Origin: an uncultured Bacteroidales bacterium
GTDB lineage: Bacteria > Bacteroidota > Bacteroidia > Bacteroidales > VadinHA17
NCBI GenBank assembly: GCA_963816345.1
Contig: CAWFKI010000005.1
Location: forward strand, 2,550,053 to 2,614,052
Direction of reading: 5' to 3'
Length of the DNA stretch: 64,000 bases
In this document: positions 2,646 through 55,186 of the stretch, piece after piece
Position numbering within the stretch: position 1 is the first letter of the stretch
Layout: the number at the start of each line of letters is the position of its first letter
Translations under genes and position numbers: made by a program
Notes under the pieces: model-generated
Told to the model about the DNA's origin: nothing
The model's database searches: none
What the model saw: only the letters and a program-made list of their open reading frames with translations

Positions 2646-4640
2646 CTACTTTAATAAACTAATTCTCAGGACTGTCATCGAACGAGCCGGAAAGGTGTAG
2701 GTAAAGTCATTACTTGTCCTGAAGGTTCCTTCCTTTGGGAAAACATTTACAGGATTCGTAATTGAATTGACTGCGTCATTTGCAGCGGTAATCATTATAT
2801 AATGTCCGTCAGAATTGACATTAGATTCACCTTTAAGTATTATATGAACAGCTTCTGAACTGTCAGCTTTATTAACCGCTTTAATCAGGATAACATTTTT
2901 ACCGTCAGATTCGTCAACAGAGGTGGATAAGTAAGTTTTTTTTGCATTGGAAGTAAATGGCAATATCCGGGTTCCATGGTTATTCCCGAATAGAGTTGTA
3001 TGCATATAATATCCTGGATTACCATAACAGGATACCGCATCAAACCAGAGTAAATTACAGCCAAAATCACCATGGCCTACAATTGATCCAAAATTACCAT
3101 AGCCTGTCCACGACATCCTTTCAGAATTTTTCTCACAGCCCAGCATGAAGATACCATCGGCTAGCGCATCGCTGAAGTCAGCGTCTACATTTGCTGCCAT
3201 TCCTTTATGCGATGAACAATACTCCTGTATCATAAACCTGCTTATGCCGGGGTCGCAATTGGCGGAATCATAAAAGTTATACCTTCCTGAATTGTCATTG
3301 CTGAGAAAATGGTCATCAACAGCCCAGAAGGATTGCCCCTCCGGATGTGAAACTTCGCCATAAAAATGACCATTAAAAGCTATCTTCATATCAGGATAGT
3401 ACTTTATTATAGTATCATGAATAATCCGGTAACGCTGAGCATACGCAGCTGAATCATTAGCCCTGTGATTATTTTCAGCTCCTATCTGAACATACCGTAG
3501 ATTATATGGAGCCGGATGACCATTTTTTGCACGGACTGCGCCCCATTTGGTAGAGACAGCTCCATTGCAATACTCTAAAAAATCCAGGCAATCATCTGTT
3601 ACTATCGACATTGAATCGAGAGGAGTATAAATTATCGGTAGTTTTGTACAATCATCACTGAATATTCCGGCTGTAAACACATACATTGGCTCAGCACCCA
3701 AATCGGTAGCCAGCTGAAAAAACTCATCCGTACCAAAATAGAGGTCGTTTTTATAACCCCAGCAGTAAGAGGTGGACCCGCCTCTTTCTTCTAAAGGACC
3801 AATAGATTCTTTCCATCTCCTGCAATAATTATAATTTGCCCAATGAGCATCGAATCCGCCGGGGTATGCCAAAAATGCCAGATGCATACTATCAAGCTTT
3901 TTCGCAATATCAATTCTGCATCCGTGATCCTTCCAGGTAGGCGGCATTACAGTGACCACATCAAAATAAACATCACCTGGTGCGGAGGCATAAATCAAGA
4001 ATCTGTTGTTCCCCGAAACAGATTTAATTCCGCTGGTAACAAGATCACATGTATAATTTGCCCAGCCTGACGTTGGAGTAAAGCTTCGGGAAGCATAGGC
4101 AGTACCATCACTGCTTTCAAGTTTTGTAGTAAGGGTACCGGAGAAGTTTGAACCTTTTTTAGCCCAGAAAGAAACTTTATAAGTTGTGTTATTTTCTAAT
4201 TTCATACCCCAGAATCCATCATTTTTTATTCCGACGCTTCCCGAAGCAACCGAAATGACTGATAACTTGATACAATGAACCTGATGACTGTTCAGCATAG
4301 CTGTATTGACTGAAGTTTGTCCCGATATACTACCCGATGAAGAGCCTGGCGTTACAATACCCCAATACTTGTCGGGAAAGGGAGCACCCCATGCATCGAC
4401 TACCTCTTCAAATGAAGGATTGTTAATCATCTGGGCATATAACCCTCCCTCTATTCCATGATTAAATTCTTCCAGTTCCTGACCTCTGCAAATAGGAGCG
4501 ACTGGAGCTCCCGGCTTCGAAACATTAACAAAGCATCTTGATGTAATAGTTCTTTTACATGCCATAAATGTCACAAGACAAATACCGACTAGTATTACCA
4601 AACCCCATGCGGCTCGTAAAATAATTTTTAGAGTTCTCAT
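2646..4640 (-). CDS. GH51-type alpha-L-arabinofuranosidase with N-terminal CBM4/9-like domain, secreted
   Basis: 664-aa ORF with a signal peptide. Motifs: GGLYAQMINNPSFEE, YVQIGAENN (the GNE acid/base position reads AEN here), IQEYCSS (nucleophile context). C-terminal beta-sandwich region shared with the paralogs. Confidence 0.7.
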   Translation of the reverse strand: MRTLKIILRAAWGLVILVGICLVTFMACKRTITSRCFVNVSKPGAPVAPICRGQELEEFNHGIEGGLYAQMINNPSFEEVVDAWGAPFPDKYWGIVTPGSSSGSISGQTSVNTAMLNSHQVHCIKLSVISVASGSVGIKNDGFWGMKLENNTTYKVSFWAKKGSNFSGTLTTKLESSDGTAYASRSFTPTSGWANYTCDLVTSGIKSVSGNNRFLIYASAPGDVYFDVVTVMPPTWKDHGCRIDIAKKLDSMHLAFLAYPGGFDAHWANYNYCRRWKESIGPLEERGGSTSYCWGYKNDLYFGTDEFFQLATDLGAEPMYVFTAGIFSDDCTKLPIIYTPLDSMSIVTDDCLDFLEYCNGAVSTKWGAVRAKNGHPAPYNLRYVQIGAENNHRANDSAAYAQRYRIIHDTIIKYYPDMKIAFNGHFYGEVSHPEGQSFWAVDDHFLSNDNSGRYNFYDSANCDPGISRFMIQEYCSSHKGMAANVDADFSDALADGIFMLGCEKNSERMSWTGYGNFGSIVGHGDFGCNLLWFDAVSCYGNPGYYMHTTLFGNNHGTRILPFTSNAKKTYLSTSVDESDGKNVILIKAVNKADSSEAVHIILKGESNVNSDGHYIMITAANDAVNSITNPVNVFPKEGTFRTSNDFTYTFPARSMTVLRISLLK

Positions 4641-4775
4641 TTGTATGTTATTCTTTTATGAATAATCTACCCTGTCTGTTTGCCTGTGGTTCAGTGTTAA
4701 TATTATCCTTTCTTTCGAATTCATATTTAAACAGGATGCAGGTTACAATATCTTAGTTTTTTTTAAGACCGCCTA

Positions 4776-6116
4776 TCAATTGTGCTTCATAAATATTTTC
4801 TCCAACTCCTCCAGACTTTTTCCTTTTGTTTCGGGAAGTTTAAAGATTACAAACAGAAGCAATAAAACACACATCACATCAAAAATCAGGAAGGCAACAC
4901 CACCGCCAAGCCTGTTTAAGATGACAGGGAAGGTAAGCGTAACCAGAAAATTTGCAGCCCATAAAGCTACAATAGAGACAGACATAGCCTTGCTTCTTAT
5001 TTTGTTGGGAAAGATCTCTGATACCATCACCCATGTCACAGGTCCTATTGATGCTGCAAACGAAGCCATATAGGTTAGAAAAAAGAAAAGGATGAAGTAA
5101 CCCTGAAGCTTGTTCAGGAAATATGCAATGGCTACCATGGTAAGCGATACTGCCATTCCTATGGTTCCCCAAATCATTAGAGGTTTTCGCCCCCAACGGT
5201 CAATCCATCTTATGGCAACAAGTGTGAACAGAAAGAGTACTCCCCCAAGAATAGCCGTCTGGATGAGTGCAGAATCTATACCATTGCCCAGATTCCTGAA
5301 GATCATAGGTGCATAATACATGATAGCGTTGATACCAGTGACCTGCTGAAAAACGGCCAGCAAGATCCCTACCCAGAGTATATATCTCATTCTCTTTGAA
5401 AATACTTCCCTGTAGCTCGTAGGTTCCTCAGAAGCAATGGAGGCTTCAATAGCTGCAAGTTCAGTGGCTGCTGTCCCGGCACCATTGATTCGCTTTAAAA
5501 TTTTAAATGATTCATCCCTCCGGTTATTCTGCATCAGCCATCGTGGGCTTTCAGGAACAAATATCAGTGAAACAAAGAAAATAAAGGCCGGAACTGCCAT
5601 TACGGCAAGCATCCATCTCCAGTTTTGCTCACCGGTACCGGAAAGAAGATAATTGGAAAAGTAGGCAACCAGATCTCCGGTTACAATAGCAAGCTGGTTG
5701 AGCGAAACCAGCGATCCCCGTTTTTCGGCAGGCGCTATTTCGGAAATGTACATGGGTGACAGCATTGAGGCGGCACCAACTGCTATACCTCCAAAAAAGC
5801 GACATGAGATAAATATTCCAAGATGAGTCGATAGTGCTGACCCGATGGCCGAGATAACAAATAGTAATGCTGATGCCAAGAGCATTTTTCTTCGTCCGAA
5901 TATATCCCCTGGTTTGCCGGACAAAATAACACCGATTATACAGCCAATTAAAAGGCTGCTTACGGTCCATCCCAGAGCGATGTCGTTGAGTTGAAAATAA
6001 GGCTGAATGAAGGGAGTTACCCCTGATATTACAGCCTCATCGAAGCCGAAAAGCAATCCTCCAAGTGTTGCCACTATTGTGACCAAAATTAAAAACCGGG
6101 AATCTTTTTCTTTCAT
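4776..6116 (-). CDS. MFS sugar porter (sugar:H+ symporter, XylE/AraE-like)
   Basis: 446 aa with about 12 hydrophobic segments. Sugar-porter signatures GRRKMLL, PESPRWL and PETKGKSLEELE. Confidence 0.85.
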   Translation of the reverse strand: MKEKDSRFLILVTIVATLGGLLFGFDEAVISGVTPFIQPYFQLNDIALGWTVSSLLIGCIIGVILSGKPGDIFGRRKMLLASALLFVISAIGSALSTHLGIFISCRFFGGIAVGAASMLSPMYISEIAPAEKRGSLVSLNQLAIVTGDLVAYFSNYLLSGTGEQNWRWMLAVMAVPAFIFFVSLIFVPESPRWLMQNNRRDESFKILKRINGAGTAATELAAIEASIASEEPTSYREVFSKRMRYILWVGILLAVFQQVTGINAIMYYAPMIFRNLGNGIDSALIQTAILGGVLFLFTLVAIRWIDRWGRKPLMIWGTIGMAVSLTMVAIAYFLNKLQGYFILFFFLTYMASFAASIGPVTWVMVSEIFPNKIRSKAMSVSIVALWAANFLVTLTFPVILNRLGGGVAFLIFDVMCVLLLLFVIFKLPETKGKSLEELEKIFMKHN

Positions 6117-6145
6117 ATTGAGAGAATTGATAAATGGCTTTGTAT

Positions 6146-8140
6146 TTATTTCGGTATTGAAATCCTGATCCTCAGGACGGTAACCGACCAGGCTTGAAAA
6201 TCGTACTTAAATGTTGTTCCTGAAGTAAAGGTACCAGCTACAGGAACTATTTTAGTTGGATTAGCAATGGAATTTTCGTCTTCAGGGACTCCTGTTATGG
6301 TAGTGGAGTGACCGTCAGGATCAACTGCTTCAGCACCTTTCAGAGTAATATCAACAGATTCGGTGGTAGCTGATTTGTTTACAACCTTAAGGAGAATGTC
6401 GTTTTTACCAGAGGCGTCATCAATTGATGCAGACCAGTAACAATTTGTCGTATTCTGTGTGAATGGCAATATACGGGTTCCCTGATTATCCGTGAATAAC
6501 ATCTTTTGCATATAATATGAAGGTGTTGCAAAACATGATACAGCATCATTCCATACAATACAGGGTCCGAAATTGCTATGATTCACATAACCGGCATAAT
6601 TTCCATATCCGGTCCACCAGAGTCGTTCAGAATTCTTTTCACAGCCAAGCATAAAAGCGGCATCTCCGAGTCCATCTCCAAAATTGCCAATCACGTTTCC
6701 ACCGTTTCCTTTAATGGAGGTCGCAAACTCAGCGACACAAATTTTTTTGCAGGACGGATCGATAGTGTCATATTTGCTGTACAAACCTGAAAGATCTTTC
6801 CTGTAGAAGTGTTCATCGGTGAAATCAACCGGATTCCCGGAAGTCCGCGTTCGTTCATTCCCTGAAGTGCCATTATACATGATCCGGATATCAGGATATT
6901 TCGCTTTTATAGCGTTATAAATCAACGGATAACGGGCATTGTACTCAACAGTTGTTCCATAGTTTTCATTGCCAATTTCGACATACTTGAGATTATAGGG
7001 CGCAGGATGTCCGTTTGCTGTCCGCTTAGCTCCCCATTTTGTCGAAGCTGATCCTTTGCAGTACTCAAGCATATCCAAAATATCATCTATAATTGGTTGC
7101 ATTTTATCGAGCGGGCACAGGGCCCACCAGGCGGGATAATTTGGTCTTTCACTGATTCCGGCCGAAGTGACATAAACAGGCTCGGCGTTCAGATCCTCGC
7201 ACAATTGCAAATATTCATCCAGACCAAAATAGAGCTCGTTATTGTACCACCATCGATTCCTTGTGGACCCTGCTCTTTGTTCCAGGGGTCCGACAGAATT
7301 CTTCCAGTTCCAGCACGTATCCATGCTTGCAGACTCAGAAGTACAGCCACCCGGGAATTGGATAAACTTCATTTTCAATGCTGCCAATTTTTCGGCCAGA
7401 TCGGGTCGTAATCCGTTGGGACGATTCTTCCAGGTCGGAGGCATCACTGTGACTACATCAAAATATACATCACCTGTTGAAGAGGCATATATTACAAAAC
7501 GGTTGTTTCCGGTAATACTTGAAACACCTTTTGTTGAGAGGTCACAGGTAAAATGCTGCCAGCTTGTTGTTGGTTTAAAATCAGCTGATTGAGCGTAAAC
7601 TATTCCTTCATTGCTCTCCAGTTTTGCCTTTATTGTACCGCTGTAATTCGAACCTTTCTTAGCCCAGAAAGAGACTTTATATTTTGTGTTGTTTTCAAGT
7701 TTAATACCCCAGTAACCACCATTGGACAGTCCCACGCTGCCTGAAGCCACAGAGGTAACCTTAAGTTTGATACAATGATTTTGATGGTCGTTCAGCATAC
7801 CTGTTTCCCCGGAAGTCTGACCTAATAAGTTGCCCTTTGATGATCCTGGGTTTATCAGAGCCCAATAAGCAGCAGGGGTACTATTAAACTTGGTGTCAAT
7901 CTCTTCAAATGAGGGATTATTAAGAAGCTGGGCATATAGTCCTCCTTCAATCTGGTGGTTAAACTCCTCTATCTGCTGGCCTCTGCAGATATCTGCAACT
8001 GCAGCTCCAGGTTTTGAAATGTCCACAATACAGTTCGTTTGTGCCTGAACTTGAATAACTACTGTACACAAAAAAAATACTGCCGATAAGCACATCCAAA
8101 GTTGTTTTGGTAATCTGCCTGCATTTTCAATTGTTTTCAT
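6146..8140 (-). CDS. GH51-type alpha-L-arabinofuranosidase with N-terminal CBM4/9-like domain, secreted
   Basis: 664-aa ORF with a signal peptide. Motifs: GGLYAQLLNNPSFEE, YVEIGNEN (GNE acid/base motif), CVAEFATS (nucleophile context). It is the closest intact relative of the pseudogene at 565-2561. Confidence 0.75.
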   Translation of the reverse strand: MKTIENAGRLPKQLWMCLSAVFFLCTVVIQVQAQTNCIVDISKPGAAVADICRGQQIEEFNHQIEGGLYAQLLNNPSFEEIDTKFNSTPAAYWALINPGSSKGNLLGQTSGETGMLNDHQNHCIKLKVTSVASGSVGLSNGGYWGIKLENNTKYKVSFWAKKGSNYSGTIKAKLESNEGIVYAQSADFKPTTSWQHFTCDLSTKGVSSITGNNRFVIYASSTGDVYFDVVTVMPPTWKNRPNGLRPDLAEKLAALKMKFIQFPGGCTSESASMDTCWNWKNSVGPLEQRAGSTRNRWWYNNELYFGLDEYLQLCEDLNAEPVYVTSAGISERPNYPAWWALCPLDKMQPIIDDILDMLEYCKGSASTKWGAKRTANGHPAPYNLKYVEIGNENYGTTVEYNARYPLIYNAIKAKYPDIRIMYNGTSGNERTRTSGNPVDFTDEHFYRKDLSGLYSKYDTIDPSCKKICVAEFATSIKGNGGNVIGNFGDGLGDAAFMLGCEKNSERLWWTGYGNYAGYVNHSNFGPCIVWNDAVSCFATPSYYMQKMLFTDNQGTRILPFTQNTTNCYWSASIDDASGKNDILLKVVNKSATTESVDITLKGAEAVDPDGHSTTITGVPEDENSIANPTKIVPVAGTFTSGTTFKYDFQAWSVTVLRIRISIPK

Positions 8141-21822: not shown

Positions 21823-24421
21823 TCACTCACTTATGAATTTGTATTCTGGTATCAGGATTGGCCGGCCTTTTTCGGCATTGCAGATCATTGCATTTTTCTT
21901 ATCGCCTTCAGAGTTGCCAGGGTAATCTGAAGATGCGACATGAACGTATGGATTCATCTTGGTTATGAAGATAAGAGCCCGCTCCCGTGCCTCTTCCGAG
22001 AATTTTGCAAACTGCGGATAAACCAGTCTGATAATTTCACCCAGTTCCGTTTGTTTTGAGTAGATAACTCCTTTTTGTCCCGCACCGCTATTCTCATCCG
22101 GGACTATAACAACAACCCCGCCGGAAGGGATCCAGTTCAGCCAGTTCATCTCTTCCCCTGCATTTTTTTCACTCCCCCGTCTGATAATCAGGTCGGTATA
22201 GTATCTTCTTAAACTTTCCTTAAATAGCGGAGGCAGCTTTGTTTTTTGTATATATCCTGAAATCAGCCGGCAGTTATTATAATGATCAATATTGAAATTA
22301 TAATCTTCAGCTGAAATCCTGCCTCTGTAATTCACCATCTGATTTGAAAAAAGATCAACCAGGACTTTAAATTCAGTGGATAATGTATCCGGCAAATGAT
22401 TATTTTTCAGGATAAAGCTCCTGATGCCCCTTGAATAGCCTTTTTTATCCGATGCTCCCGAAATGAGATTCTCCGATGTCCGGACAATCTCTTCAGGAAC
22501 CGCATCCAGCCTGTCAGGATTAAGTATTATCCCCGTAACCGGTTTCCTGGTTTCATCGTCTAGCTTCGGTTCGGTTATAACTGAACTGCCGGAATGGATC
22601 TCTTCAGCATCGATTTCAATTGAACCCGAAGCCAATCCGCTCGAAAAAACTGTCACTCTGATCCTGCCGGGTTCCCCCGTCGACCTGATAAGGTTTATCG
22701 CCGGGGTCCCAGTATACCATGAATGATAAGCGCTTCTTTCCATATCCATGGCAGGCTCATAGAAGGCCGGTCCTACCAGCCTGGCGGGCCCGGAGACTTT
22801 CCAGCTGAGTATATTGGGTGCCCCGGCTACATTATTTCCTCCTGAATCAAGGATATCGGCCTTTATTATTACAACTGACCCGCGATCGGCTCCTGTTTTC
22901 CCGTGTGATGCGGAGAGGAGTATCCTTGAAGGTTCTCCGTCCTTTGAAGCTACAGGCCCGGAGGTGTGATTTTTATCTCCGAAATTAAAATATTCCAGCG
23001 ATGAATCTGTCTTTACCGGTAAAGTGCTGACAATCCGTGCCGGATCTTCAGACATGGCAAATTTTACATTTGCCGTGTCATCAGGCTCATAACTCACATT
23101 CCATAACACTATGCTGGCGAAATTGCGGTCGCGGCGGATCATTTCCCTGATCTGCATTCTCTGTTCTTCAGGAGAGAAACCCGACTTTGAGACTGCACTG
23201 AAATCTTCGGCGGCTATTATTCCGTATTTATCAGTAAGCTCAAATACAAGTTTATTTTCAGGAAAATTTTCTGTCCTGATGAAGTTAAATTTCATTGCTC
23301 TCTTCAAATCCGCCAGGTCCATTACAGTCATCCAATCAGGTACCGCTGCTCCCAGCCAGGGGTATTGCTGATGCCTGACAGCACCTTTCAGAGCGATTTG
23401 TTTCCCGTTAAGATAGAGCGTATCGCGCATTTTACTCAGACTGAACCATCTGAAACCAAATGTACCTGACAGGGAATCTGCCAGTTCTCTTTTGTCAAAG
23501 ACTTCAGAATGAACCGTATAGAGATAGGGATCCTTATCTGACCAGAGGTGAGGATCCTTTACGGGCCTGGAGGTCTGATCGAACATAAATAATTTTCCTG
23601 GCTCAATGGTAGCTTCTGTTTTCATTACCTGAACAGTCTGACCTTTCCGGTCGGAGAGAGTGGTCTGAAGCAGGCAGTTTTTTGCAAGGGAATTATCATT
23701 CTTCACCCAGGTAATCACCTTTACAATACCCTCTTTTTCCGAAACAACCGGGGTGGTAATGCAGGTACCTCCTTCATGCACTGCCGATCCCTGCATTGGA
23801 ATATGGAGCTTATTCCTGATGGAAATAGTCACATTCCGGAATATCCCGCAGGAAGTATTATAATTCCCCTCGGAAAGAGGATGAATCCTGAACTCATCTT
23901 TTGGAAGGTCAATTACTGCTACTGCCAGCACATTCGTCCATCCCGGGCTTAAGAGAGGCAGTTATATCAAAATCGAAAGAACCGTACCCTCCTTTGTGAT
24001 CACCAAGGTAGATGCCATTAAGCCATACTTTGCAGTATTTCTGAACACCTTCAAATTCAATGAAAACCTTGCTGTCAGTATACTCGCTGACTGTTGAGAA
24101 ATGTTTGCGGTACCAGCCCCACCCTTTCCACCAGTATGTCTCTCCGGTCTCTCCCGGACACCTTGTAAAGGGACGCACCTCGCCGGTTGTCTCAAAGCTG
24201 TTCCAGGTATGAGGCAGGCTTACAGCAAGCCATTTTGAATCACTGTATACCGGTGATTCGTAGCCTTTATCGGCTGTTGGTAACGGAAAATAGTTAAAGG
24301 TCCATTGAGAGTTGATCACCTGTTGAATTCTGCCGGATATGGCAGCATCAACCTGTTTTTTTTGCGCAACCGAAAATGCGGAACTGAAAAATAATGCAAG
24401 AAACAGTGCGATTACTTTCAT
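21823..24421 (-). pseudogene. GH2-like glycosidase with interrupted frame and a roughly 300-aa C-terminal extension of unknown function
   Basis: N-terminal ORF (24421-23909) ends ...FDFDITASLKPG. The C-terminal ORF (23931-21823) resumes with (N)VLAVAVID, the normal GH2 sugar-binding-domain continuation, so a frame change lies in 23909-23931. The catalytic region reads IRTENFP...IVLWNVSYEP. Confidence 0.75.
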
Positions 24422-24656
24422 TGCCAAAATCTTATAAGAGTGTACAAAATAAGAAAATATTATCATAAAGTATGACCTGTCCATGATTATTTCACAATAA
24501 TTTCCTTTATAATCTCTCTGTGTTAAGCTGGATTAATATCTTAAGCGCATTTCCGATGAATAAACGTATCCGTTCAAATTATATATTTATTTAATATTAA
24601 ATTACATATTTATTAATAAAAAAATACTTTTTGCTTCTATTAATGAATTGAATCTA

Positions 24657-25774: not shown

Positions 25775-25782
25775 TACATTTG
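25775..25782 (+). promoter_or_regulatory. Bacteroidetes-type -7 box (TAcaTTTG) for the ilv-leu operon leader
   Basis: TAnnTTTG match ending 21 nt upstream of the leader ATG at 25803. Confidence 0.55.
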
Positions 25783-25802
25783 CATTCTGATTTAAAGAGA
25801 TT

Positions 25803-25865
25803 ATGCAGAAACATACAATAATATATATTATTATCCTCGTACTCCTCATTGCTCTGCGCAAATGA
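25803..25865 (+). CDS. ilv-leu leader peptide MQKHTIIYIIILVLLIALRK (attenuator sensor ORF)
   Basis: 20-codon ORF in which 11 of 20 codons are Ile (6), Leu (4) or Val (1). It sits between the -7 box and an intrinsic terminator directly upstream of ilvD. Confidence 0.7.
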   Translation: MQKHTIIYIIILVLLIALRK

Positions 25866-25899
25866 ACCGGGAATAATATGTAGTACTATAAACTTACAG

Positions 25900-25929
25900 A
25901 AGCTTTCCGGGAGACCGGGAAGCTTTTTT
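25900..25929 (+). terminator. Intrinsic terminator of the ilv-leu attenuator
   Basis: 11-bp stem AAGCTTTCCGG/CCGGGAAGCTT (one G-U), loop GAGA, T6 run, ending 17 nt before the ilvD ATG. CCGGGAA at 25867-25873 can alternatively pair with TTTCCGG at 25904-25910. Confidence 0.75.
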
Positions 25930-25945
25930 AATATGAATTCATAAT

Positions 25946-27772: not shown

Positions 27773-27840
27773 CACGGGGCACAGGGCACAGAGCACAGGG
27801 CACAGAGCACAGAGCAAAGAGCACAGACTAGAGCATAGAG
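27772..27840. repeat. Tandem heptanucleotide array (GCACAGR)n
   Basis: GCACGGG GCACAGG GCACAGA GCACAGG GCACAGA GCACAGA GCAAAGA GCACAGA followed by a degenerate tail. It starts on the last base of the ilvD stop codon. Confidence 0.9.
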
Positions 27841-27885
27841 ATTACTAAGGGATAAAAAACAGGATATTAAGACAAAAATCGAAAT

Positions 27886-29626
27886 ATGAAGAGTGTAAAG
27901 GAAAAAGAACAGGCAACAGCACAAATTAACGGACTGGAGTGTATTACAGGTGCAGATGCCATAATAAGATGCCTCATTGAAGAGGGAGTTGATACTATAT
28001 TTGGTTATCCCGGCGGAGCTATCATGCCTGTATATGATAAGCTTCTTGATTATGAAGGTCAGATAAAGCATTATCTTACCCGTCACGAGCAGGGAGCAGC
28101 TCATGCAGCGCAGGCTTATGCCATGGTAAGCGGGAAACCGGGGATCTGCTTTGCAACATCAGGCCCGGGTGCTACAAATCTGGTAACAGGGATAGCAAAT
28201 GCGTTTCTCGACTCGGTTCCGGTTGTTTTTATTACAGCCCAGGTAGTATCGGGCCTCATAGGAACAGATGCTTTTCAGGAGACTGATATTATAGGTGTAT
28301 CGATGCCTGTGACAAAATGGAACTGCCAGATCAAGAAGCCACAGGATATACCTGAGACACTTGCAAAAGCTTTTTACATAGCAAAAACAGGCCGCCCCGG
28401 CCCCGTACTAATCGATATTACAAAAGATGCACAGATTGAGAAACTTGATTTCAGGTACTCCAAATGTGTCTCACTTGAGAAGCTATAATCCGAATATCCC
28501 CCTGCATACCAAGGCGATAGAATCGGCAGCAATAATCATCAACCATGCCGAAAGGCCTCTTATCCTTGCAGGACACGGAGTGCTTCTTTCCGGTGCAGAG
28601 AAGGAGCTTAAGGCATTTGCTGAGAAAACAGGCATACCTGTTGCGCTTACCCTCCTCGGGTTGTCTGCATTTCCATCCGACCACCGCCTCTTCGCCGGGA
28701 TGCTTGGCATGCACGGAAATTACGGCCCGAATCTGCTGACCAATCAGGCTGACCTCATAATAGCAATCGGAATGCGTTTTGATGACCGTGTTACGGGAAA
28801 TCTTAAAAAGTATGCAAATAATGCAACGATAATCCATATCGAGATTGATGAAGCCGAGATAAATAAAAATGTTGTGGTCGATGTTGAAATAAATAATGAT
28901 GCAAAGGAGGCTTTAACATATCTGACACGAATTGTGAAGGAGAACTCCTTTGAGAAATGGATCAGGGAATTCAGGATATGCGATAAAATCGAATACGATA
29001 AAGTTATCAAGCCTGAAACGAAACCAGAATCGGGTGAGATTAAGATGGGTGAGGTAATAAGACTGGTCTCCGAACATACAAAAGGAGATGCCATTATTGT
29101 AACGGATGTCGGACAACATCAGATGTATACTGCCCGTTACTATAAATTTAATAAACCAAACACACTTGTCACCTCGGGTGGAATGGGAACAATGGGTTTC
29201 GGCCTTCCTGCCGGGATAGGAGCAAAGATCGGAAGCCCGGAAAAGACTGTAATAGCATTCATAGGAGACGGTGGTTTCCAGATGACAATGCAGGAACTGG
29301 GAACAATATTGCAGTATGGCATTGCTCTGAAGATCATCATACTCAATAACAATTTCCTTGGAATGGTGCGCCAGTGGCAGGACATGTTTTTCGATAAGCG
29401 CTATGCCTCAACAGAACTGGTAAATCCGGATTTCGTTATGATAGCCAAAGCTTTCAGTATACCTTCAAAAAAAGTTACTCTGAGAGAAGACCTTAAAGAT
29501 TCCCTTATTGAGATGATAGACGCCGAGGGACCCTATCTTCTCGAAATAAAGGTGGAGAAGCAGGGAAATGTATTCCCAATGGTTGAACCGGGAAAATCAG
29601 TCTCGGAAATAAGATTGACTTATTAA
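27886..29626 (+). pseudogene. ilvB: Acetolactate synthase large subunit with an interrupted reading frame (authentic or sequencing artefact)
   Basis: ORF 27886-28488 (TPP-binding N-domain) ends ...[16 protein letters not shown] 28427-29626 in the +1 frame carries ...LRSYNPNIP...[10 protein letters not shown] and the rest of the enzyme. Removing one nt near 28477 would give a continuous ...[16 protein letters not shown]... protein. Confidence 0.85.
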
Positions 29627-37885: not shown

Positions 37886-37893
37886 TATCTTTG
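37886..37893 (+). promoter_or_regulatory. Bacteroidetes-type -7 box (TAtcTTTG) for the his operon leader
   Basis: TAnnTTTG match ending 19 nt upstream of the leader ATG at 37912. Confidence 0.55.
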
Positions 37894-37911
37894 CATTTAC
37901 AAATTAAAGAA

Positions 37912-37971
37912 ATGAACCACATTACATCACATCATCATTTTTCAGATGCTTGCCTTCAGGCGAGGAGATAA
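37912..37971 (+). CDS. his operon leader peptide MNHITSHHHFSDACLQARR
   Basis: 19-codon ORF with 4 His codons, three of them consecutive (37930-37938). It is followed by an intrinsic terminator and then hisG. Confidence 0.6.
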   Translation: MNHITSHHHFSDACLQARR

Positions 37972-37998
37972 TGATATGTGAATATATTAAGATATCAT

Positions 37999-38030
37999 AA
38001 ACCCGTCTGAACAGATCAGGCGGGTTTTTT
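37999..38030 (+). terminator. Intrinsic terminator of the his attenuator
   Basis: 12-bp stem AAACCCGTCTGA/TCAGGCGGGTTT (one G-U), loop ACAGA, T6 run. TCAGGCG at 37955-37961, inside the leader ORF 3' end, duplicates part of the 3' arm and can pair with CGTCTGA at 38004-38010. Confidence 0.75.
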
Positions 38031-45233: not shown

Positions 45234-45241
45234 TACTTTTG
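45234..45241 (+). promoter_or_regulatory. Bacteroidetes-type -7 box (TActTTTG) for the aromatic operon leader
   Basis: TAnnTTTG match ending 21 nt upstream of the leader ATG at 45262. Confidence 0.55.
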
Positions 45242-45261
45242 TAACCCAATAAGGCAGTCAA

Positions 45262-45327
45262 ATGAATATTGTGTACAAATATTTTATCTCCTTTTTCTAC
45301 TTCTATTTTTACTTTAAAAACAGATAA
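45262..45327 (+). CDS. Aromatic (Phe/Tyr) leader peptide MNIVYKYFISFFYFYFYFKNR
   Basis: 21-codon ORF in which 6 codons are Phe and 5 are Tyr. It is followed by an intrinsic terminator 13 nt before pheA. Confidence 0.7.
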   Translation: MNIVYKYFISFFYFYFYFKNR

Positions 45328-45367
45328 GGGGATTTTTGTATACAGATATAATTAATTTATATGAAAC

Positions 45368-45400
45368 AAGGGTCCCGCAAAGGGGCCCTTATTTGTTTTT
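45368..45400 (+). terminator. Intrinsic terminator of the Phe/Tyr attenuator
   Basis: 9-bp stem AAGGGTCCC/GGGGCCCTT (one G-U), loop GCAAA, followed by ATTTGTTTTT. Confidence 0.7.
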
Positions 45401-49775: not shown

Positions 49776-50990
49776 ATGGAAAGATGTGTAGTACCCTCCG
49801 GACTTAAGGGCCGGATTAAAGCCCCGGCATCAAAGAGTATGACACAGCGAGCCATAGCCGCTGCCCTTCTGGCTGAGGGACAAAGCACTATATACAATCC
49901 CTCCTATTGTGACGATTCGCTGGCTGCAATGAGTGTAGCGTGCGGACTTGGTGCAAGAGTTGAGCCAATGCCGGATGAAATGAAAATTTTTGGCTCAGCC
50001 ATTCTTAAGGAGCCAAAACTGAACTGCGGGGAATCCGGCCTGGCGATAAGGATGTTCTCCCCTATTGCAGCCCTCTACCCGGCTGAGATTACAATGGTTG
50101 GAGCTAACTCTCTTAAAAAAAGGCCCATGGATATGATCGGAAAGGCCCTCGTTCAGCTGGGAGTTAAATTCACAAGCAGCGGAGGTTTTCTTCCGCTTAC
50201 AATCCAGGGACCACTTAAAGGCGGATCATGCGAAATTGACGGCTCTGTGAGCAGCCAGCTGCTGACGGGTCTGCTGATGGCATTGCCTCTGGCACAGGAA
50301 GACTCTGAGATAAAGGTTAAGAACCTGAAGAGCAAGCCTTATATAGACATGACCATCCAGCTGCTCAGGTCGTTCGGGATCTCTGTCAACAGTACAGGTT
50401 ACGACCTGTTTAAAATCCCGGGGAATCAGAAATATAAAGCTCAGGAATACACTGTGGAAAGTGACTGGAGCGGCGGAGCATTCCTGCTTATTGCCGGCGC
50501 CATAAACGGACATTTAGATATAACCGGTCTGCGGAGAGACAGCAGACAGAGCGATAGATCAGTATTGAACGCCCTGGAAAAAGCAGGCGCATCAGTAAAT
50601 ATAAGGGAAGATGGCATTGGGATCTCCGTATCTGAATTAAAAGCCTTTGAATTTGATGCGACCGAATCACCTGACCTCTTCCCTCCTCTTGTGGCACTGG
50701 CGGCCTATTGCAGGGGCACCTCGACAATAAAGGGAGTATCAAGGCTTATTTACAAGGAGAGCGACAGGGCAGCATCACTTCGGGAAGAGTTCGCTAAGAT
50801 GAATATCGGAATAGAGGTCGACGGCGATATCATGAAAGTGACAGGCGGTCGGCCCGGAGGAGCACATGTGGAATCGCACGACGACCATCGTATTGCAATG
50901 GCAGTTGCAGTAGCTGCGCTCGGAGCATCAGGCAATGTCTGTATCAGGGATTCTCAATGTGTTGCAAAATCTTATCCCGGGATTTTTTGA
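49776..50990 (+). CDS. aroA: 3-phosphoshikimate 1-carboxyvinyltransferase (EPSP synthase), C-terminus truncated by a frame change in a T6 run
   Basis: 404 aa with EPSPS motifs (KSMTQRA, SSQLLTGLLMA, DHRIAMA). The ORF ends ...KSYPGIF* at the T6 run 50983-50988. The +1 frame continues DDLRSLGATVIE* to 51027, which is the normal EPSPS ending. Confidence 0.9.
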   Translation: MERCVVPSGLKGRIKAPASKSMTQRAIAAALLAEGQSTIYNPSYCDDSLAAMSVACGLGARVEPMPDEMKIFGSAILKEPKLNCGESGLAIRMFSPIAALYPAEITMVGANSLKKRPMDMIGKALVQLGVKFTSSGGFLPLTIQGPLKGGSCEIDGSVSSQLLTGLLMALPLAQEDSEIKVKNLKSKPYIDMTIQLLRSFGISVNSTGYDLFKIPGNQKYKAQEYTVESDWSGGAFLLIAGAINGHLDITGLRRDSRQSDRSVLNALEKAGASVNIREDGIGISVSELKAFEFDATESPDLFPPLVALAAYCRGTSTIKGVSRLIYKESDRAASLREEFAKMNIGIEVDGDIMKVTGGRPGGAHVESHDDHRIAMAVAVAALGASGNVCIRDSQCVAKSYPGIF

Positions 50991-51073
50991 TGATTTGCGA
51001 TCGCTGGGAGCAACAGTAATCGAGTGAAAAAAGTAAAAAAGTTGATTTTGTGATGATAATTTAAAAATTTAAT

Positions 51074-51081
51074 TATTTTTG
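51074..51081 (+). promoter_or_regulatory. Bacteroidetes-type -7 box (TAttTTTG) for the trp leader / trpB2
   Basis: TAnnTTTG match ending 32 nt upstream of the leader ATG at 51113. Confidence 0.5.
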
Positions 51082-51112
51082 TGTAACGGCTGCAATCAGC
51101 AGAGTAATAATT

Positions 51113-51175
51113 ATGAAAGTAAAAATGTTTAATATCTGGTCCTGGCGCAACTTAAGCGATTATGCTGTGAAATAA
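51113..51175 (+). CDS. Trp leader peptide MKVKMFNIWSWRNLSDYAVK
   Basis: 20-codon ORF with two TGG codons two positions apart (51137-51139 and 51143-51145). Its 3' end is complementary to part of the downstream terminator. Confidence 0.65.
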   Translation: MKVKMFNIWSWRNLSDYAVK

Positions 51176-51209
51176 GCCGTTATATAACATTTAAATGATA
51201 TTTATCTAT

Positions 51210-51239
51210 AAAGGCACGCTTTTCACAGCGTGCCTTTTT
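51210..51239 (+). terminator. Intrinsic terminator of the Trp attenuator
   Basis: 11-bp perfect stem AAAGGCACGCT/AGCGTGCCTTT, loop TTTCAC, T run. GCTGTGAAA at 51164-51172 (end of the leader ORF) is a perfect complement of TTTCACAGC at 51221-51229, giving an antiterminator. Confidence 0.8.
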
Positions 51240-51277
51240 AATTTTGCATTTTCAATCAACCATCAAAACTAAATAAA

Positions 51278-52645
51278 ATGGAAAAACTCAGAAAAATCAT
51301 CCTAAGTGAAAAAGAAATGCCAACGCACTGGTATAATATTATGGCAGATATGCCAAACAAGCCATTGCCTCCGTTACATCCCGGAACAAAAAAGCCTGTA
51401 GGTCCTGAGGATCTTGCAGCTGTTTTCCCCATGGAACTGATCAAACAGGAGGTATCAACAGAAAGATATATCGAGATACCTGATGAGGTCCTTTCTCTTT
51501 ATCATACCTATCGTCCGTCACCGCTCTTCAGGGCTCTGGGTCTCGAGAAGGCTATTGGTACAAAAAGCAAAATATACTACAAGTATGAGGGAGGCAACTA
51601 TTCCGGTTCGCATAAAGCCAATACTGCCATTCCCCAGGCCTATTACAACAAGAAGGAGGGAGTACGCAGGATCACCACTGAGACCGGCGCCGGGCAGTGG
51701 GGAAGTGCGATGAGCTTTGCCTGTAACCATTTCGGTCTCGAACTGCTGGTCTTCATGGTAAGGGTCAGCTACGAACAGAAGCCTGGCCGTAAGCTTCTTA
51801 TGAATGCCTATAATGCAAAGGTGGTTCCATCACCCAGCTCAATGACCGAGGCCGGCAGAAAAGTACTTGAAATGTTTCCTGATTCCCCGGGCAGCCTCGG
51901 GATCGCAATCTCTGAAGCGATGGAGGTGGCAGTTCAGGATCCCTATACCAAATACTCACTCGGAAGCGTTCTCAATCATGTTATCCTGCATCAGACCATT
52001 ATCGGACAGGAAGCCCTTATACAGATGGGAAAGACAGATGATTATCCGGATGTGGTAATCGGTTGTTTCGGTGGCGGTTCCAACTTCTCCGGAATAGCAT
52101 TTCCGTTTCTGAGGGAAAATCTGGTCAATGGTAAGAAGACAAGGCTTCTGACAGTTGAACCAGCTTCATGCCCTAAGCTTACAAAAGGAAAATTCATGTA
52201 TGACTTTGGTGATTCTGCAGGAATGACCCCTCTTCTCCCGATGTACACCCTGGGTCATAATTTCATCCCTGCAAAGATCCATGCAGGCGGCCTTCGCTAT
52301 CATGGCGCCGGTGTTCTGGTAAGCCAGCTTCTGAAGGACGGATTCATCGAGGCCAGGGCCAAGATGCAGAGGGAATGTTTTGAAGCCGGAGTGCTTTTTG
52401 CAAGAACCGAAGGGATCCTGCCGGCACCCGAATCTACATACGCTATTGCTGCAGCTCTTGATGAAGCAAGGACAGCCGATCTCGAGGGAGTATCAAAAAC
52501 AATTCTCTTTAACCTGAGCGGACACGGTCATTTTGATATCTCGGCTTATGAGAAATATTTTGAGGGAAATCTGCCCGACCATGAGATGACAACCGCAGAG
52601 GTCGAGGAGGCTATCTCAAAAATAGATCTGCCGGTATTGATGTAA
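51278..52645 (+). CDS. trpB: TrpB2-type (long, stand-alone) tryptophan synthase beta-like PLP enzyme
   Basis: 455 aa. The N-terminal extension EMPTHWYNIMADMPNKPLPPLHP is typical of TrpB2. Motifs: GSHKANTA (PLP lysine), TETGAGQWGSA, GGGSNF. Confidence 0.88.
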   Translation: MEKLRKIILSEKEMPTHWYNIMADMPNKPLPPLHPGTKKPVGPEDLAAVFPMELIKQEVSTERYIEIPDEVLSLYHTYRPSPLFRALGLEKAIGTKSKIYYKYEGGNYSGSHKANTAIPQAYYNKKEGVRRITTETGAGQWGSAMSFACNHFGLELLVFMVRVSYEQKPGRKLLMNAYNAKVVPSPSSMTEAGRKVLEMFPDSPGSLGIAISEAMEVAVQDPYTKYSLGSVLNHVILHQTIIGQEALIQMGKTDDYPDVVIGCFGGGSNFSGIAFPFLRENLVNGKKTRLLTVEPASCPKLTKGKFMYDFGDSAGMTPLLPMYTLGHNFIPAKIHAGGLRYHGAGVLVSQLLKDGFIEARAKMQRECFEAGVLFARTEGILPAPESTYAIAAALDEARTADLEGVSKTILFNLSGHGHFDISAYEKYFEGNLPDHEMTTAEVEEAISKIDLPVLM

Positions 52646-52963: not shown

Positions 52964-53770
52964 CTAGAAATCAGAATATGATGTCGGATGAAGCAGGTAA
53001 ATATTTGCTTTGGAGACTGTGTTCTTATATTCATCCAAAGCAGATAATTTCTTCCATTCAGGTGAACTGCCGAATTCCTTCCAGTGCGCATCGTGCGATT
53101 TCATATCCGCAAAGGTGGTCATGTACATCAGGTTTGGCTTCTGGCTGCCGGCAAGAACTTCTCCGTAAAATACAGCATTGAAATTAAGCTTCTTAAACAG
53201 AGCAATTTCGCCTCCCTTGTTGAACATTTCTATCTTTTTGGCAGCCTTTGCCTCAGTGGCACTTTCATAACTGCGTAATTCATAAATCCTTTCCGAAGCA
53301 GGTGTTGAGTAACTGGGAGCCATGAACTGAGGCATATCAAGGAATGCCTTCAGAAGGATGCTCTGATGCCTCTGATATGGAGGATTGTCGATTGGCGCAT
53401 CAAGGAAGGACTTTCCTGCTGCTTCATAAGTCTTATCCTTCTCCAGGGTAGCAGGCAACAGCAAAAACTGATCAAAGGAGTTATATGGAATAAAAACATA
53501 TATCATCTTCCCGAAGGATGCAGTGTCGCTCTCCACAGGCTTGAATACGCCTACCTTTTGAATACCTGCCCGGTGCAGCGCAGGAATAAAGGCATCTTTC
53601 AGAAAAGCATCAACCTTTCCTGACTGAACACTATTTGCGACCTGGTAGATCCGAATCTCGTAATACTGCTGTTTTACAGGAGCTGTGCCATAGCTTGTGA
53701 ATGAACATGCTATAAATAACAACAATGGAAGAGCCATGAGAGGCCGTCTGATAAATTCTGATTTTTTCAT
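52964..53770 (-). CDS. NIPSNAP-family protein (two NIPSNAP domains), secreted
   Basis: 268 aa with a signal peptide. It has two repeats of the YE(I/L)R.Y... ferredoxin-like NIPSNAP pattern (YYEIRIYQV, IYELRSYES...MFNKGGEIALF). Confidence 0.65.
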   Translation of the reverse strand: MKKSEFIRRPLMALPLLLFIACSFTSYGTAPVKQQYYEIRIYQVANSVQSGKVDAFLKDAFIPALHRAGIQKVGVFKPVESDTASFGKMIYVFIPYNSFDQFLLLPATLEKDKTYEAAGKSFLDAPIDNPPYQRHQSILLKAFLDMPQFMAPSYSTPASERIYELRSYESATEAKAAKKIEMFNKGGEIALFKKLNFNAVFYGEVLAGSQKPNLMYMTTFADMKSHDAHWKEFGSSPEWKKLSALDEYKNTVSKANIYLLHPTSYSDF

Positions 53771-53827: not shown

Positions 53828-55186
53828 TCATTCATTACTGGTATTCTCAATATGCACGAAATTAAGCGGTTTACGAAACCAGTTTGTCCTGTAGGCTCCG
53901 TATAGTACGCCGGCAGAAAGCCAGCACATTCCAACGATCTTGGCATTGAGTCCCAGGCTTAGCCACAGGAAGAAACAGATTGTAAATCCAAGGAATGGAA
54001 TAAGTAGGTTAATGAATGACTTTTTTTCATTATGTAAAAAATAACGGGTGAAAGAGGAGGCATTTACGCCCATAAAAGCAATAAGGGCTCCGAAATTCAA
54101 TAGCTGGGCTCCAATCGGATAGGTAAGCAAAAATGCGCCTCCGAGAGTTAATGCACCAACAAGTATTATATTATTTGATGGTACCCGTGTGCGGGCATTC
54201 ACAACACCAAAGAATTTCTTTGGAATAGCATTATCGCGTCCCATTCCATAGAGAAGCCTGCCGGCTCCGAGCTGTGCCCCGGCACCTGAACCAATAGTTG
54301 CTACAAGCAGGGCAAGGTTTACCGTATGAAAAAGCCACTGGCCGCCTGCTCTGCCGGCAACGAAACAGAAAGCGGTATCCTGATCAGGGAAAGTTGTTGC
54401 CGGCCATACCATCTGGGCGAAATAGACCTGAACCGAAGCAAGGACCCCGGTAATAATGCAGACAAGAACAGAAGCCAGAAGGATATTGCGTCTTGGATTA
54501 TGTACCTCTTCCGACAGCGTCGATATTCCATCAAATCCGATATACGTCAGTACTGCAAGTGATGCACCCGCAGAAACTCCGGAAAATGAAAAAGTTTTCG
54601 GATCATAAAAGGGCCTTGTCCAGTCAGCTGCTCCGGCGGGTGGGTGAATAAGCAGATACCTTACCGCTGCTCCGAGAAACAACACTATCACTACTCCCAG
54701 CCCTGTTGCAATTACTGCATTTGTCCTTGAACTCGATTCGATGCCACGAAGGTTCATTCCTGTAAAAAGTAATGTGAAAACCACGAGGTAAACCCCCAAC
54801 GGTATCTCAGGAATCAGATTGATTGCAGCTTTGCTGACCCATATCACGCATATTATCGGATTCATTACATAATCGAAGATCATGCCCCAGCCGACAAAGT
54901 AACCCAATGCAGGATGGATCTCCCTGCTGACATACGTATAGGCGGAACCGGCGCTGGGATATGCATTGGCCATCTTTCCGTAACTTATTGCCGTAAAAAG
55001 CATTCCGACCATCCCGATCAGGATCGTAGTGACAACATGCCCTTTGGCCAGGCCGACGGCAGCACCGAAAAGCGGCATCGGAGCAGTAGGCTGAATAAGG
55101 ATTATACCGTACAGCACAAGGGCTGACAAACCCAGAACCCGCTTTAAGCCTGGACCGGAACCGGACGATGATTGGGTATTACTCAT
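53828..55186 (-). CDS. APC-superfamily amino acid/polyamine permease
   Basis: 452 aa with about 12 TM segments. The N-terminal LKRVLGLSALVLYGIILIQPTAP pattern resembles PuuP/amino-acid permeases. Confidence 0.8.
   Translation of the reverse strand: MSNTQSSSGSGPGLKRVLGLSALVLYGIILIQPTAPMPLFGAAVGLAKGHVVTTILIGMVGMLFTAISYGKMANAYPSAGSAYTYVSREIHPALGYFVGWGMIFDYVMNPIICVIWVSKAAINLIPEIPLGVYLVVFTLLFTGMNLRGIESSSRTNAVIATGLGVVIVLFLGAAVRYLLIHPPAGAADWTRPFYDPKTFSFSGVSAGASLAVLTYIGFDGISTLSEEVHNPRRNILLASVLVCIITGVLASVQVYFAQMVWPATTFPDQDTAFCFVAGRAGGQWLFHTVNLALLVATIGSGAGAQLGAGRLLYGMGRDNAIPKKFFGVVNARTRVPSNNIILVGALTLGGAFLLTYPIGAQLLNFGALIAFMGVNASSFTRYFLHNEKKSFINLLIPFLGFTICFFLWLSLGLNAKIVGMCWLSAGVLYGAYRTNWFRKPLNFVHIENTSNE

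Follow-up and report, generated by a model that had tools for sequence, protein, structure and literature searches.

The element analysed here most closely resembles leader-peptide attenuators of tryptophan genes. In the trpL leader of E. coli (RF00513), as in the leader of trpB2 described below, a short leader ORF carries closely spaced Trp codons in region 1, the RNA has hairpins 1:2, 2:3 and 3:4, a terminator precedes the first structural gene, and the logic is the same, with stalling at UGG leading to read-through. The Trp codons of the trpB2 leader are arranged as W-x-W, in contrast to the WW of trpL, and its region 3 comprises the base and loop of the terminator, whereas region 3 of trpL is the whole 5′ arm. 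The setting also differs, with a Bacteroidetes-type promoter and a single trpB2 gene in place of trpEDCBA. The RF00513 model scores 18.3 bits in the window (the whole 64-kb stretch of DNA analysed) and 28.4 and 26.9 bits in the related loci L050 and L075, all below its gathering threshold of 41. No Rfam family is matched in a gathering-threshold scan of the whole window, and permissive scans of the locus and nine relatives return just sub-threshold leader or sRNA matches, driven by the terminator.

From Bacteroidetes, the Bacteroid-trp leader (RF01692) has been described as controlling trpB and trpE (Weinberg et al., 2010), so Trp leaders as a kind are no novelty there. Like the trpB2 leader, Bacteroid-trp is predicted to be a leader-peptide attenuator with Trp codons and has an intrinsic terminator at its end. 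Its peptides (...Y-W-W-W-R..., as in ...TYWWWR...), with UGGCGC after the Trp codons, resemble those of the trpB2 leaders, and several of its seed sequences have a −7 box a few nucleotides before the leader ATG. The similarity of the leader peptides makes common descent of the two plausible. The Bacteroid-trp seed flanks that we read encode TrpB1 (...FGGAYIPE..., in B. vulgatus) and TrpE, whereas the gene here is a stand-alone TrpB2 and not the trpB or trpE of a canonical operon. The trpB2 leaders are also tightly conserved, with 74% mean column identity, in contrast to Bacteroid-trp, described as “a loosely conserved hairpin.” Searches with the RF01692 model, which was run without a positive control, found no match in the window at the gathering threshold or at E ≤ 10 over positions 50950–51350, and none at E ≤ 1 in the nine relatives searched.

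Known stand-alone trpB2 genes likewise lie away from trpA and bear the same family signatures, but the literature that we searched describes no Trp-responsive cis-regulation for them, whereas the gene here has a Trp attenuator of its own. In that search, which was incomplete, no Trp attenuator of a stand-alone trpB2 gene came to light, nor anything on TrpB2 of Bacteroidetes. The only “trpB2” leader that it returned is from Corynebacterium diphtheriae, where the name denotes a second trpB in a trpB2A operon.

A similar gene arrangement is found in the aromatic supraoperon of Bacillus subtilis, in which the Trp-regulated trpEDCFBA genes lie directly 3′ of aromatic-pathway genes, with an attenuator between them that is controlled by the TRAP protein. 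The present locus is alike in placing a Trp unit behind aromatic-pathway genes, with an attenuator between and probable read-through. It differs in that its attenuation appears to be ribosome-mediated and its Trp unit is a single trpB2.

The trpB2 gene and its leader

The features of the locus are as follows.

51074–51081, plus strand: predicted sigma-ABfr “−7” promoter box TATTTTTG of the leader-trpB2 transcript (direct read; TSS predicted)
51113–51175, plus strand: leader peptide ORF MKVKMFNIWSWRNLSDYAVK, 20 codons plus stop, with ATG at 51113 and TAA at 51173–51175
51137–51145, plus strand: putative regulatory Trp codons TGG-TCC-TGG, encoding W9 and W11 (TGG at 51137–39 and 51143–45)
51137–51151, plus strand: region 1, predicted 5′ strand of the anti-antiterminator (UGGU 51137–40, CGCAAC 51146–51)
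51164–51184, plus strand: region 2, predicted switch strand (GCUGUGAAA 51164–72, GCC 51176–78, UUAUA 51180–84)
51207–51229, plus strand: region 3 (UAUAA 51207–11, GGC 51213–15, UUUCACAGC 51221–29)
51210–51241, plus strand: intrinsic terminator with an 11-bp stem (51210–51237), loop TTTCAC and a T-rich tail (terminator scan, folding)
51278–52645, plus strand: trpB2, 455 aa, a TrpB-like PLP enzyme; the sole gene 3′ of the attenuator
52877–52854, minus strand: terminator beyond trpB2 (terminator scan)
52964–53770, convergent to trpB2: next gene, with a NIPSNAP domain

A reading of these letters made from the sequence alone (the sequence-only reading) had proposed a Trp-codon leader with a perfect 9-nt antiterminator, controlling an orphan trpB2. 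Its description of the parts holds up on direct reading: the −7 box, the 20-codon ORF with two TGG codons and the start of trpB2, whose ATG at 51278 lies 39 nt past 51239, are all where it had placed them, and the sequence and the terminator scan put the 11-bp perfect stem at the same site. The terminator arms, AAAGGCACGCT and AGCGTGCCTTT, form 11 pairs, 6 of them G-C, around a 6-nt loop and are followed by TTAATTTT. The 9-nt complement between the end of the leader ORF and the terminator loop and 3′ arm was also read as described, GCTGTGAAA (51164–51172) being the exact reverse complement of TTTCACAGC (51221–51229). Region 2 takes in the stop codon of the leader ORF and the three sense codons before it. 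Within region 3, GGC is the base of the terminator 5′ arm, and UUUCACAGC comprises the loop plus the first 3 nt of the 3′ arm.

The downstream gene had been assigned to the TrpB2 type, and family scores and PDB matches agree on this. Its product scores 703.5 bits against NCBIfam NF009057 (cut-off 366) and 616.1 bits against TIGR01415 (cut-off 518.85), and reaches 134 bits with TIGR00263 trpB, under the cut-off of 392. The nearest solved structures are those of Sulfolobus TrpB2 (best 434 bits); TrpB2 proteins in the PDB score 372–434 bits, and other tryptophan synthase beta chains among the PDB matches listed score about 80–127 bits. The protein thus lies above the cut-offs of the TrpB2 families (NF009057 and TIGR01415, COG1350) and nearer to TrpB2 than to TrpB1.

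The absence of trpA and trpEGDCF from the window, also part of the earlier description, is borne out by NCBIfam and Pfam scans, which find no trpA, C, D, E, F or G among the 51 ORFs scanned. Since the next gene is convergent, trpB2 is monocistronic in the window. The term orphan applies more widely, as trpB2 is an orphan, monocistronic gene in every locus examined. There is no TrpB1 cross-match in the ±7-kb flanks of 80 genome loci, and N-terminal fragments of TrpE and TrpB1, taken from the flanks of Weinberg et al. (2010), have no match in 1.9 Mb of locus DNA. These searches show only that no trp operon is adjacent to the loci, and our claim is limited to adjacency.

Further upstream, NCBIfam and Pfam scans identify a polysaccharide-utilisation locus at 0.5–24.5 kb of the window, followed by a plus-strand amino-acid supercluster of about 27 kb that ends in the leader and trpB2. 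The order of its genes is:

First, plus strand: asnA
Second, plus strand: ilvD-ilvB-ilvN-ilvC-leuA-leuC-leuD-(cimA/leuA2)-leuB
Third, plus strand: hisGDCBHAF-IE
Fourth, plus strand: pheA, an aminotransferase gene, tyrA, DAHP synthase/chorismate mutase and aroA, then the leader and trpB2

Conservation of the leader and its linkage to trpB2

Homologous leaders were collected in two ways. A scan of the genome collection with the TrpB2 protein returned 80 loci, the first 53 of which (L001–L053) are from Bacteroidales metagenome-assembled genomes with TrpB2 proteins 73–90% identical. Of the 51 genome loci that reach far enough upstream, 50 have a small W-x-W ORF about 165 nt before trpB2; in the sole exception, L006, the leader is deleted and the hairpin is retained directly after aroA. 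One locus, L018, begins just 63 nt before trpB2, and the leader of L029 is identical to that of L024. Over a region of 134 nt, to which the mean column identity given above refers, the alignment is nearly gapless, with conserved blocks TGGNNNTGGYGCAGC; GCTGTGAA; GCCRTTATATAAC; GATATT; and GGCACGCTGTTCACAGCGTGCC followed by a T tract.

The second collection came from metagenomes, scanned with a pattern made up of region 2, the spacer and the terminator only, free of Trp codons and coding sequence. This gave 120 loci. The start of trpB2 lies 33–68 nt past the match in 115 of them, and the remaining five end too early for the downstream gene to be judged. W-x-W is found at codons 9–11 after a start codon in 117 of the 119 metagenome loci with enough upstream DNA, and the two exceptions still carry TGG...TGG.

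Searched with a covariance model made from 51 genome leaders, each locus has a single plus-strand copy, which invariably lies immediately before trpB2; neither the 64-kb window nor about 1 Mb of flanking DNA contains a further copy with a full score. The weak matches left over are either the near-palindromic terminator read on the minus strand or scattered matches of at most 30 bits. The model also recognises more distant trpB2 leaders of Bacteroidota, with 60 bits in L070 and 31–40 bits in L071, L075, L066 and L063; most trpB2 loci of the Chitinophagaceae type have no Trp leader. The element stays before trpB2 despite different upstream genes, which include aroA, pheA, DAHP synthase, a his operon and a response regulator. 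As judged from these searches, its linkage to trpB2 is exclusive.

The coding signature indicates that the leader ORF is translated. In 130 leaders (120 distinct peptides) the first W is codon 9 without exception, and the first 12 codons hold no stops in frame, whereas the two alternative frames have 188 and 55. The start codon position is identical in 128/128 leaders (127 ATG and 1 GTG), and the TGG codons are invariant columns 28–30 and 34–36 of the genome-locus leader alignment (A1). The motif W-x-W-[RCH]-S runs throughout the homologous leaders: the residue between the Trp codons is S, R, W, C, L or one of a few others, and the two residues that follow them are RS, CS or HS. The corresponding codons, CGC, TGC or CAC and then AGC, are region 1 of the predicted RNA switch. 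The length of the peptide is 14, 16, 20 or 24 aa, the stop shifting within or just beyond region 2; wherever it falls, a ribosome terminating there would mask region 2 or touch its edge. With its W-x-W, fixed ATG and frame bias, this is a short ORF enriched in cognate codons, and the TGG codons, on whose conservation the sequence-only reading had made its proposal depend, are kept.

The promoter is conserved as well. A TAnnTTTG box occurs within 70 nt upstream of the leader ATG in 122/128 homologous loci, compared with 9% of shuffles, and in 110/128 the box ends exactly 5 nt before the ATG. The −7 consensus and a box-to-TSS spacing of 4–5 nt have been described (PMC7366714, PMC6847099); in Flavobacterium johnsoniae the TSS lies 4–5 nt past the −7 element (PMC6847099). 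This spacing, together with the position of the box, predicts that most family members are leaderless or have a leader of 1 nt. In Bacteroides, few 5′ UTRs are short, about 3.7% measuring less than 10 nt (PMC7366714). The window is atypical, as are a few close relatives (L053, L016 and L032), in that the box ends 31 nt before the ATG, and from its position we infer a 5′ UTR of about 26 nt.

These data bear on a simpler account of the hairpin, as a mere terminator of the upstream aro/phe/tyr operon, with trpB2 expressed from its own unregulated promoter and the ORF and complementarity incidental. The terminator scan finds no other terminator between the end of aroA (about 50990–51027) and 51210, and L006, which has no leader, has the same hairpin directly after aroA; both observations suggest that the hairpin probably also ends aro-operon transcripts. 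However, the leader ORF itself is preceded by the conserved −7 box, which does not fall in the interval from the terminator to trpB2, and the whole module precedes trpB2 even behind a his operon or a response regulator. The strict coding signature of the ORF with its invariant Trp codons, and the co-variation of the antiterminator described below, likewise argue against this account, which we consider very improbable as the full explanation.

Alternative RNA helices

Three mutually exclusive helices were assessed in A1 and in the alignment of metagenome loci (A2), an independent sample, with shifted registers as controls, which are 18–63% paired over all three. In A1, the terminator helix is paired in 97.5% of cells, with 6 of 12 pairs changed on both sides (controls 25–63%). 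The antiterminator, formed by columns 55–62/119–126 and 67–69/109–111, is 95.9% paired in A1, with 5 of 11 pairs changed on both sides (controls 27–45%), and 97.0% paired in A2. For the anti-antiterminator (columns 28–31/67–70 and 37–42/55–60) the values are 97.6% in A1 and 99% in A2, with controls at 18–58%; here 2 of 10 pairs are changed on both sides in A1, and most changes are one-sided and wobble-compatible. A2 thus reproduces the helix figures of A1.

Compensatory changes in the antiterminator include GCUGUA/UACAGC in L047 and L048, GUGUA/UACAC in L022 and L031, and ACUGUG/CACAGU in L032 and L052. Column 60 has two alternative partners, and in L047 and L048 it changes in step with both. 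The complementarity was the other feature whose conservation in orthologous loci the sequence-only reading had put at stake, and it too is retained. From the full alignment, RNAalifold predicts the terminator together with the central part of the region 1:2 helix, and it predicts the antiterminator when the 3′ arm is removed.

In full, the antiterminator consists of GCUGUGAA(A)/UUCACAGC, GCC/GGC at the base of the terminator 5′ arm, and a short AU helix. The 9-nt pairing of the sequence-only reading therefore stands, but its limitation to 9 nt does not. In the window the helix is one pair longer than in most relatives (A51172–U51221). In the anti-antiterminator, the Trp codon UGG pairs with GCC, and CGCAGC pairs with GCUGUG. 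The conserved GCC at 51176–78 would thereby change partners, pairing with the first UGG codon in the off state and with GGC at the terminator base in the on state.

Folding of the window sequence gives −17.8 kcal/mol for the terminator (z −6.9) and, for the antiterminator from 51161/51164 to 51229 with the 3′ arm removed, −15.6 kcal/mol (z −3.0). Because the antiterminator is the less stable of the two and overlaps just 3 nt per terminator arm and the loop, the choice between them would have to be kinetic. The anti-antiterminator of the window is weak, with CGCAAC in place of the consensus CGCAGC and a fold not above shuffles (z +0.4). A perfect complement of at least 9 nt between the 97-nt leader and the 30-nt terminator arises in about 1% of 5000 dinucleotide-preserving shuffles of the window alone, a result that is suggestive only, and shuffle significance is overstated because the sequences are related and some alignment columns are set by the search pattern. 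The full-length fold of the window also contains a pairing of the 5′ UTR with the end of the leader (AACGGCU 51085–91 with AGCCGUU 51175–81). It was set aside as no part of the family mechanism, since the UTR insertion occurs in few relatives only and its sequence is not conserved.

The element thus has an intrinsic terminator that separates the leader ORF from the structural gene, and an antiterminator that is exclusive with it and whose upstream strand would lie under the terminating ribosome. A 1:2 anti-antiterminator holding or adjoining the regulatory codons is present family-wide and weak in the window. Judged by these conserved helices, the element is a full three-hairpin attenuator.

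A short leader peptide in which conserved Trp codons are followed by conserved residues (W-x-W-[RCH]-S) would also suit an arrest peptide of the TnaC kind, which would sense free tryptophan and raise expression at high Trp, for example of a non-biosynthetic TrpB2. TnaC needs a fixed spacing between Trp and the stop. In the trpB2 leaders the stop position varies (14, 16, 20 or 24 aa) with no fixed spacing to Trp, no Pro is conserved before the stop, and the terminator is intrinsic rather than Rho-dependent. The residues after the Trp codons are accounted for by RNA pairing, CGCAGC being region 1, the intrinsic terminator and antiterminator are positioned for stalling at the Trp codons, and the regulated enzyme is from a Trp-forming family. 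We therefore give a TnaC-like leader hardly any weight.

Control by a trans-acting factor instead of the ribosome, be it a protein resembling TRAP, uncharged tRNA as in T-boxes or a small molecule bound by a riboswitch, would share the alternative terminator and antiterminator folds common to all such systems, but it is just as remote, as no T-box or riboswitch family is matched at E-values up to 10, (G/U)AG repeat arrays are absent from the alignment as read, and the strict frame, fixed start and invariant UGG codons would be left unexplained.

Proposed regulation and role of trpB2

The reading that we favour, that a ribosome-mediated leader-peptide attenuator senses charged tRNA-Trp and controls the monocistronic trpB2, is very probably correct. 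The conservation and co-variation found over about 170 homologous loci are the decisive support for it; the proposal of a Trp attenuator in the sequence-only reading is thus upheld by Trp-codon conservation, helix co-variation and linkage to trpB2. Most likely, trpB2 is switched on at tryptophan shortage by classical attenuation.

In this model, the transcript would start at the sigma-ABfr promoter (box 51074–81) with a predicted TSS. The lack of a terminator between aroA and the leader would also permit read-through from the upstream aro/phe/tyr operon, and such transcripts would meet the same switch. A ribosome, with presumed footprints, would then translate the 20-codon leader. When Trp is scarce, it would stall at W9/W11 (51137–45) and mask region 1, leaving region 2 free. 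Region 2 (GCUGUGAAA...GCC...UUAUA) could then capture the nascent region 3 (UAUAA.GGC...UUUCACAGC), and this 2:3 pairing, by occupying the base of the terminator 5′ arm, the loop and the start of the 3′ arm, would allow RNA polymerase to continue into trpB2. When Trp is plentiful, the ribosome would reach the stop at 51173–75 and sit on region 2, so that the 11-bp terminator can fold and stop transcription near 51240. If the leader is not translated, pairing of regions 1 and 2 would favour termination too. We infer this response of termination to Trp from the arrangement of codons and helices.

On comparative evidence, then, the element is a real Trp attenuator of ordinary, textbook mechanism that is dedicated to an orphan trpB2, and the advance is incremental. 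Its value lies partly in what it says about the enzyme. The role of stand-alone TrpB2 has been argued mostly from in vitro kinetics, with indole salvage and use of O-phosphoserine as proposals, and the attenuator adds regulatory evidence that is independent of such kinetics. A Trp-codon attenuator dedicated to trpB2 implies that the enzyme is made when charged tRNA-Trp is scarce, and hence that its job would be tryptophan supply; as regulatory evidence, this speaks indirectly for tryptophan synthesis by TrpB2 in vivo. The system is compact (about 130 nt) and testable, and it extends leader-peptide attenuation in Bacteroidota to a well-defined family that Rfam models do not detect. For many of its members, the predicted start of translation coincides with the 5′ end of the transcript or adjoins it. 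To our knowledge, Bacteroidota lack Shine-Dalgarno sequences.

A more far-reaching proposal is possible, though we regard it as rather doubtful. In this proposal, an uncultured Bacteroidales clade would lack the canonical trp operon and have TrpB2 as its sole Trp-forming enzyme. Leader and trpB2 would together form a self-contained module that Trp starvation induces and that converts environmental indole to tryptophan, with the leader peptide made mostly from leaderless mRNA, as the box ending exactly 5 nt before the ATG in most loci suggests. The module stands at the end of the ilv-leu/his/phe-tyr-aro supercluster, at the place where a trp operon might be expected. If the proposal were true, a leaderless leader peptide would represent an unusual coupling of ribosome and RNA polymerase for attenuation.

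No second Trp leader was found in the window, for example before the amino-acid permease gene at 53828–55186. Leader ORFs of other kinds do occur in the same window, for His (SHHHF), Phe/Tyr (FFYFYFYF) and Ile/Leu/Val; behind each comes a terminator and then hisG, pheA or ilvD. With these further leader ORFs and terminators, leader-peptide attenuation looks to be the usual control of amino-acid operons in this genome.

Genomic context of the leader-trpB2 module

Among the homologous loci found with the TrpB2 protein of the window, the module of Trp-codon leader ORF, terminator and stand-alone trpB2 lies directly 3′ of a his operon (hisB, hisH, hisA, hisF) in L038-L046 and L051 (for example, L042, positions 3251-6415), and in another lineage it lies 3′ of a response-regulator gene (L047, 5183-5611). 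The leader and trpB2 therefore move as a unit. W-rich leader ORFs, with peptides such as SRWWWWLLKI, YWLWRTF, IWWWRF, YWCWRL and NNNWWPHE, also precede Bacteroidota trpB2 genes that are more distantly related (identity 65-69%; L063, L066, L070, L071, L074, L075 and L078). No W-rich leader ORF was found upstream of trpB2 in most of the Chitinophagaceae, Ginsengibacter and Terrimonas loci examined.

One locus, L006 (CAWBYC010000001.1, ∼6900-6990), has neither the leader ORF nor region 2, the switch strand that pairs with either region 1 or region 3 of the attenuator. Its terminator hairpin sits directly 3′ of the aroA stop codon and is still ∼30 nt 5′ of trpB2. This natural deletion variant should terminate constitutively unless its trpB2 is expressed in another way.

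Two contigs carrying Bacteroidales-type trpB2 are filed under other phyla, and both labels look like binning errors. L037, filed as “Candidatus Bathyarchaeota archaeon,” also has a Bacteroidales-type leader and aro operon; for L075, filed as “Candidatus Rokubacteria bacterium,” the leader match is no more than weak, and a tRNA lies 5′ of trpB2.

Promoter-to-start spacing

Of 128 homologous leaders, 110 have exactly 5 nt between the end of the TAnnTTTG promoter element (−7 box) and the leader ATG, a spacing that predicts leaderless or 1-nt-leader mRNAs. Similarly short spacing, of 5-8 nt, is shared by several sequences in the seed alignment of Bacteroid-trp (RF01692), the leader motif found before trpB1 and trpE (Weinberg et al., 2010). 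The window is an exception, with a box-to-ATG distance of 31 nt (51082-51112), ∼26 nt above the usual 5. In the fold of the window leader, AACGGCU (51085-91), within this longer spacer, can pair with AGCCGUU (51175-81), which flanks region 2.

Candidate attenuators in the amino-acid supercluster

The amino-acid biosynthesis operons of the window form an ∼27-kb plus-strand supercluster (24662-52645), in the order asnA; ilv-leu; hisGDCBHAF-IE; pheA, aminotransferase, tyrA, DAHP synthase/chorismate mutase, aroA; trpB2. In this arrangement trpB2 takes the place in which one might expect a trp operon. Convergent to it, on the minus strand at 52964-53770, is a gene whose 268-aa product carries a NIPSNAP domain at its C terminus; the gene occupies the same place in most relatives. 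Each block of the supercluster is apparently preceded by a leader peptide of its own, and three further regions are candidate attenuators.

Candidate attenuators upstream of hisG, pheA and ilvD

Histidine, 37886-38027, upstream of hisG (38073)
37886-93, −7 box TATCTTTG
37912-37971, leader ORF MNHITSHHHFSDACLQARR, three His codons in a row
37999-38027, 12-bp terminator, then T run

Phe/Tyr, 45234-45390, upstream of pheA (45413)
45234-41, −7 box TACTTTTG
45262-45327, leader ORF MNIVYKYFISFFYFYFYFKNR, Phe and Tyr alternating
45368-45390, 9-bp terminator

Branched-chain, 25775-25929, upstream of ilvD (25946)
25775-82, −7 box TACATTTG
25803-25865, leader ORF MQKHTIIYIIILVLLIALRK
25899-25929, strong hairpin and T run

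The operon behind the mixed Phe/Tyr leader contains pheA as well as tyrA, and this leader may sense Phe and Tyr alike. For the region upstream of ilvD, RNA folding of 25866-25935 gave −20.6 kcal/mol.

Probable frameshifts

Three sites in the window probably contain frameshifts (50979-51027, 27773-28426 and 23909-23931). At the first, aroA stops at 50990, within GGGATTTTTTGATGA; with one T removed, the frame runs on as ...FDDLRSLGATVIE* to 51027, in agreement with orthologs. At the second, ilvB (28427-29626) is without its N-terminal TPP domain, and the 650-nt gap 5′ of it (27773-28426) holds no ORF of at least 90 aa on the coding strand. At the third, a GH2 glycosidase is in two pieces, 23909-24484 and 21823-23931. 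These probable frameshifts reflect either homopolymer assembly errors or pseudogenes.
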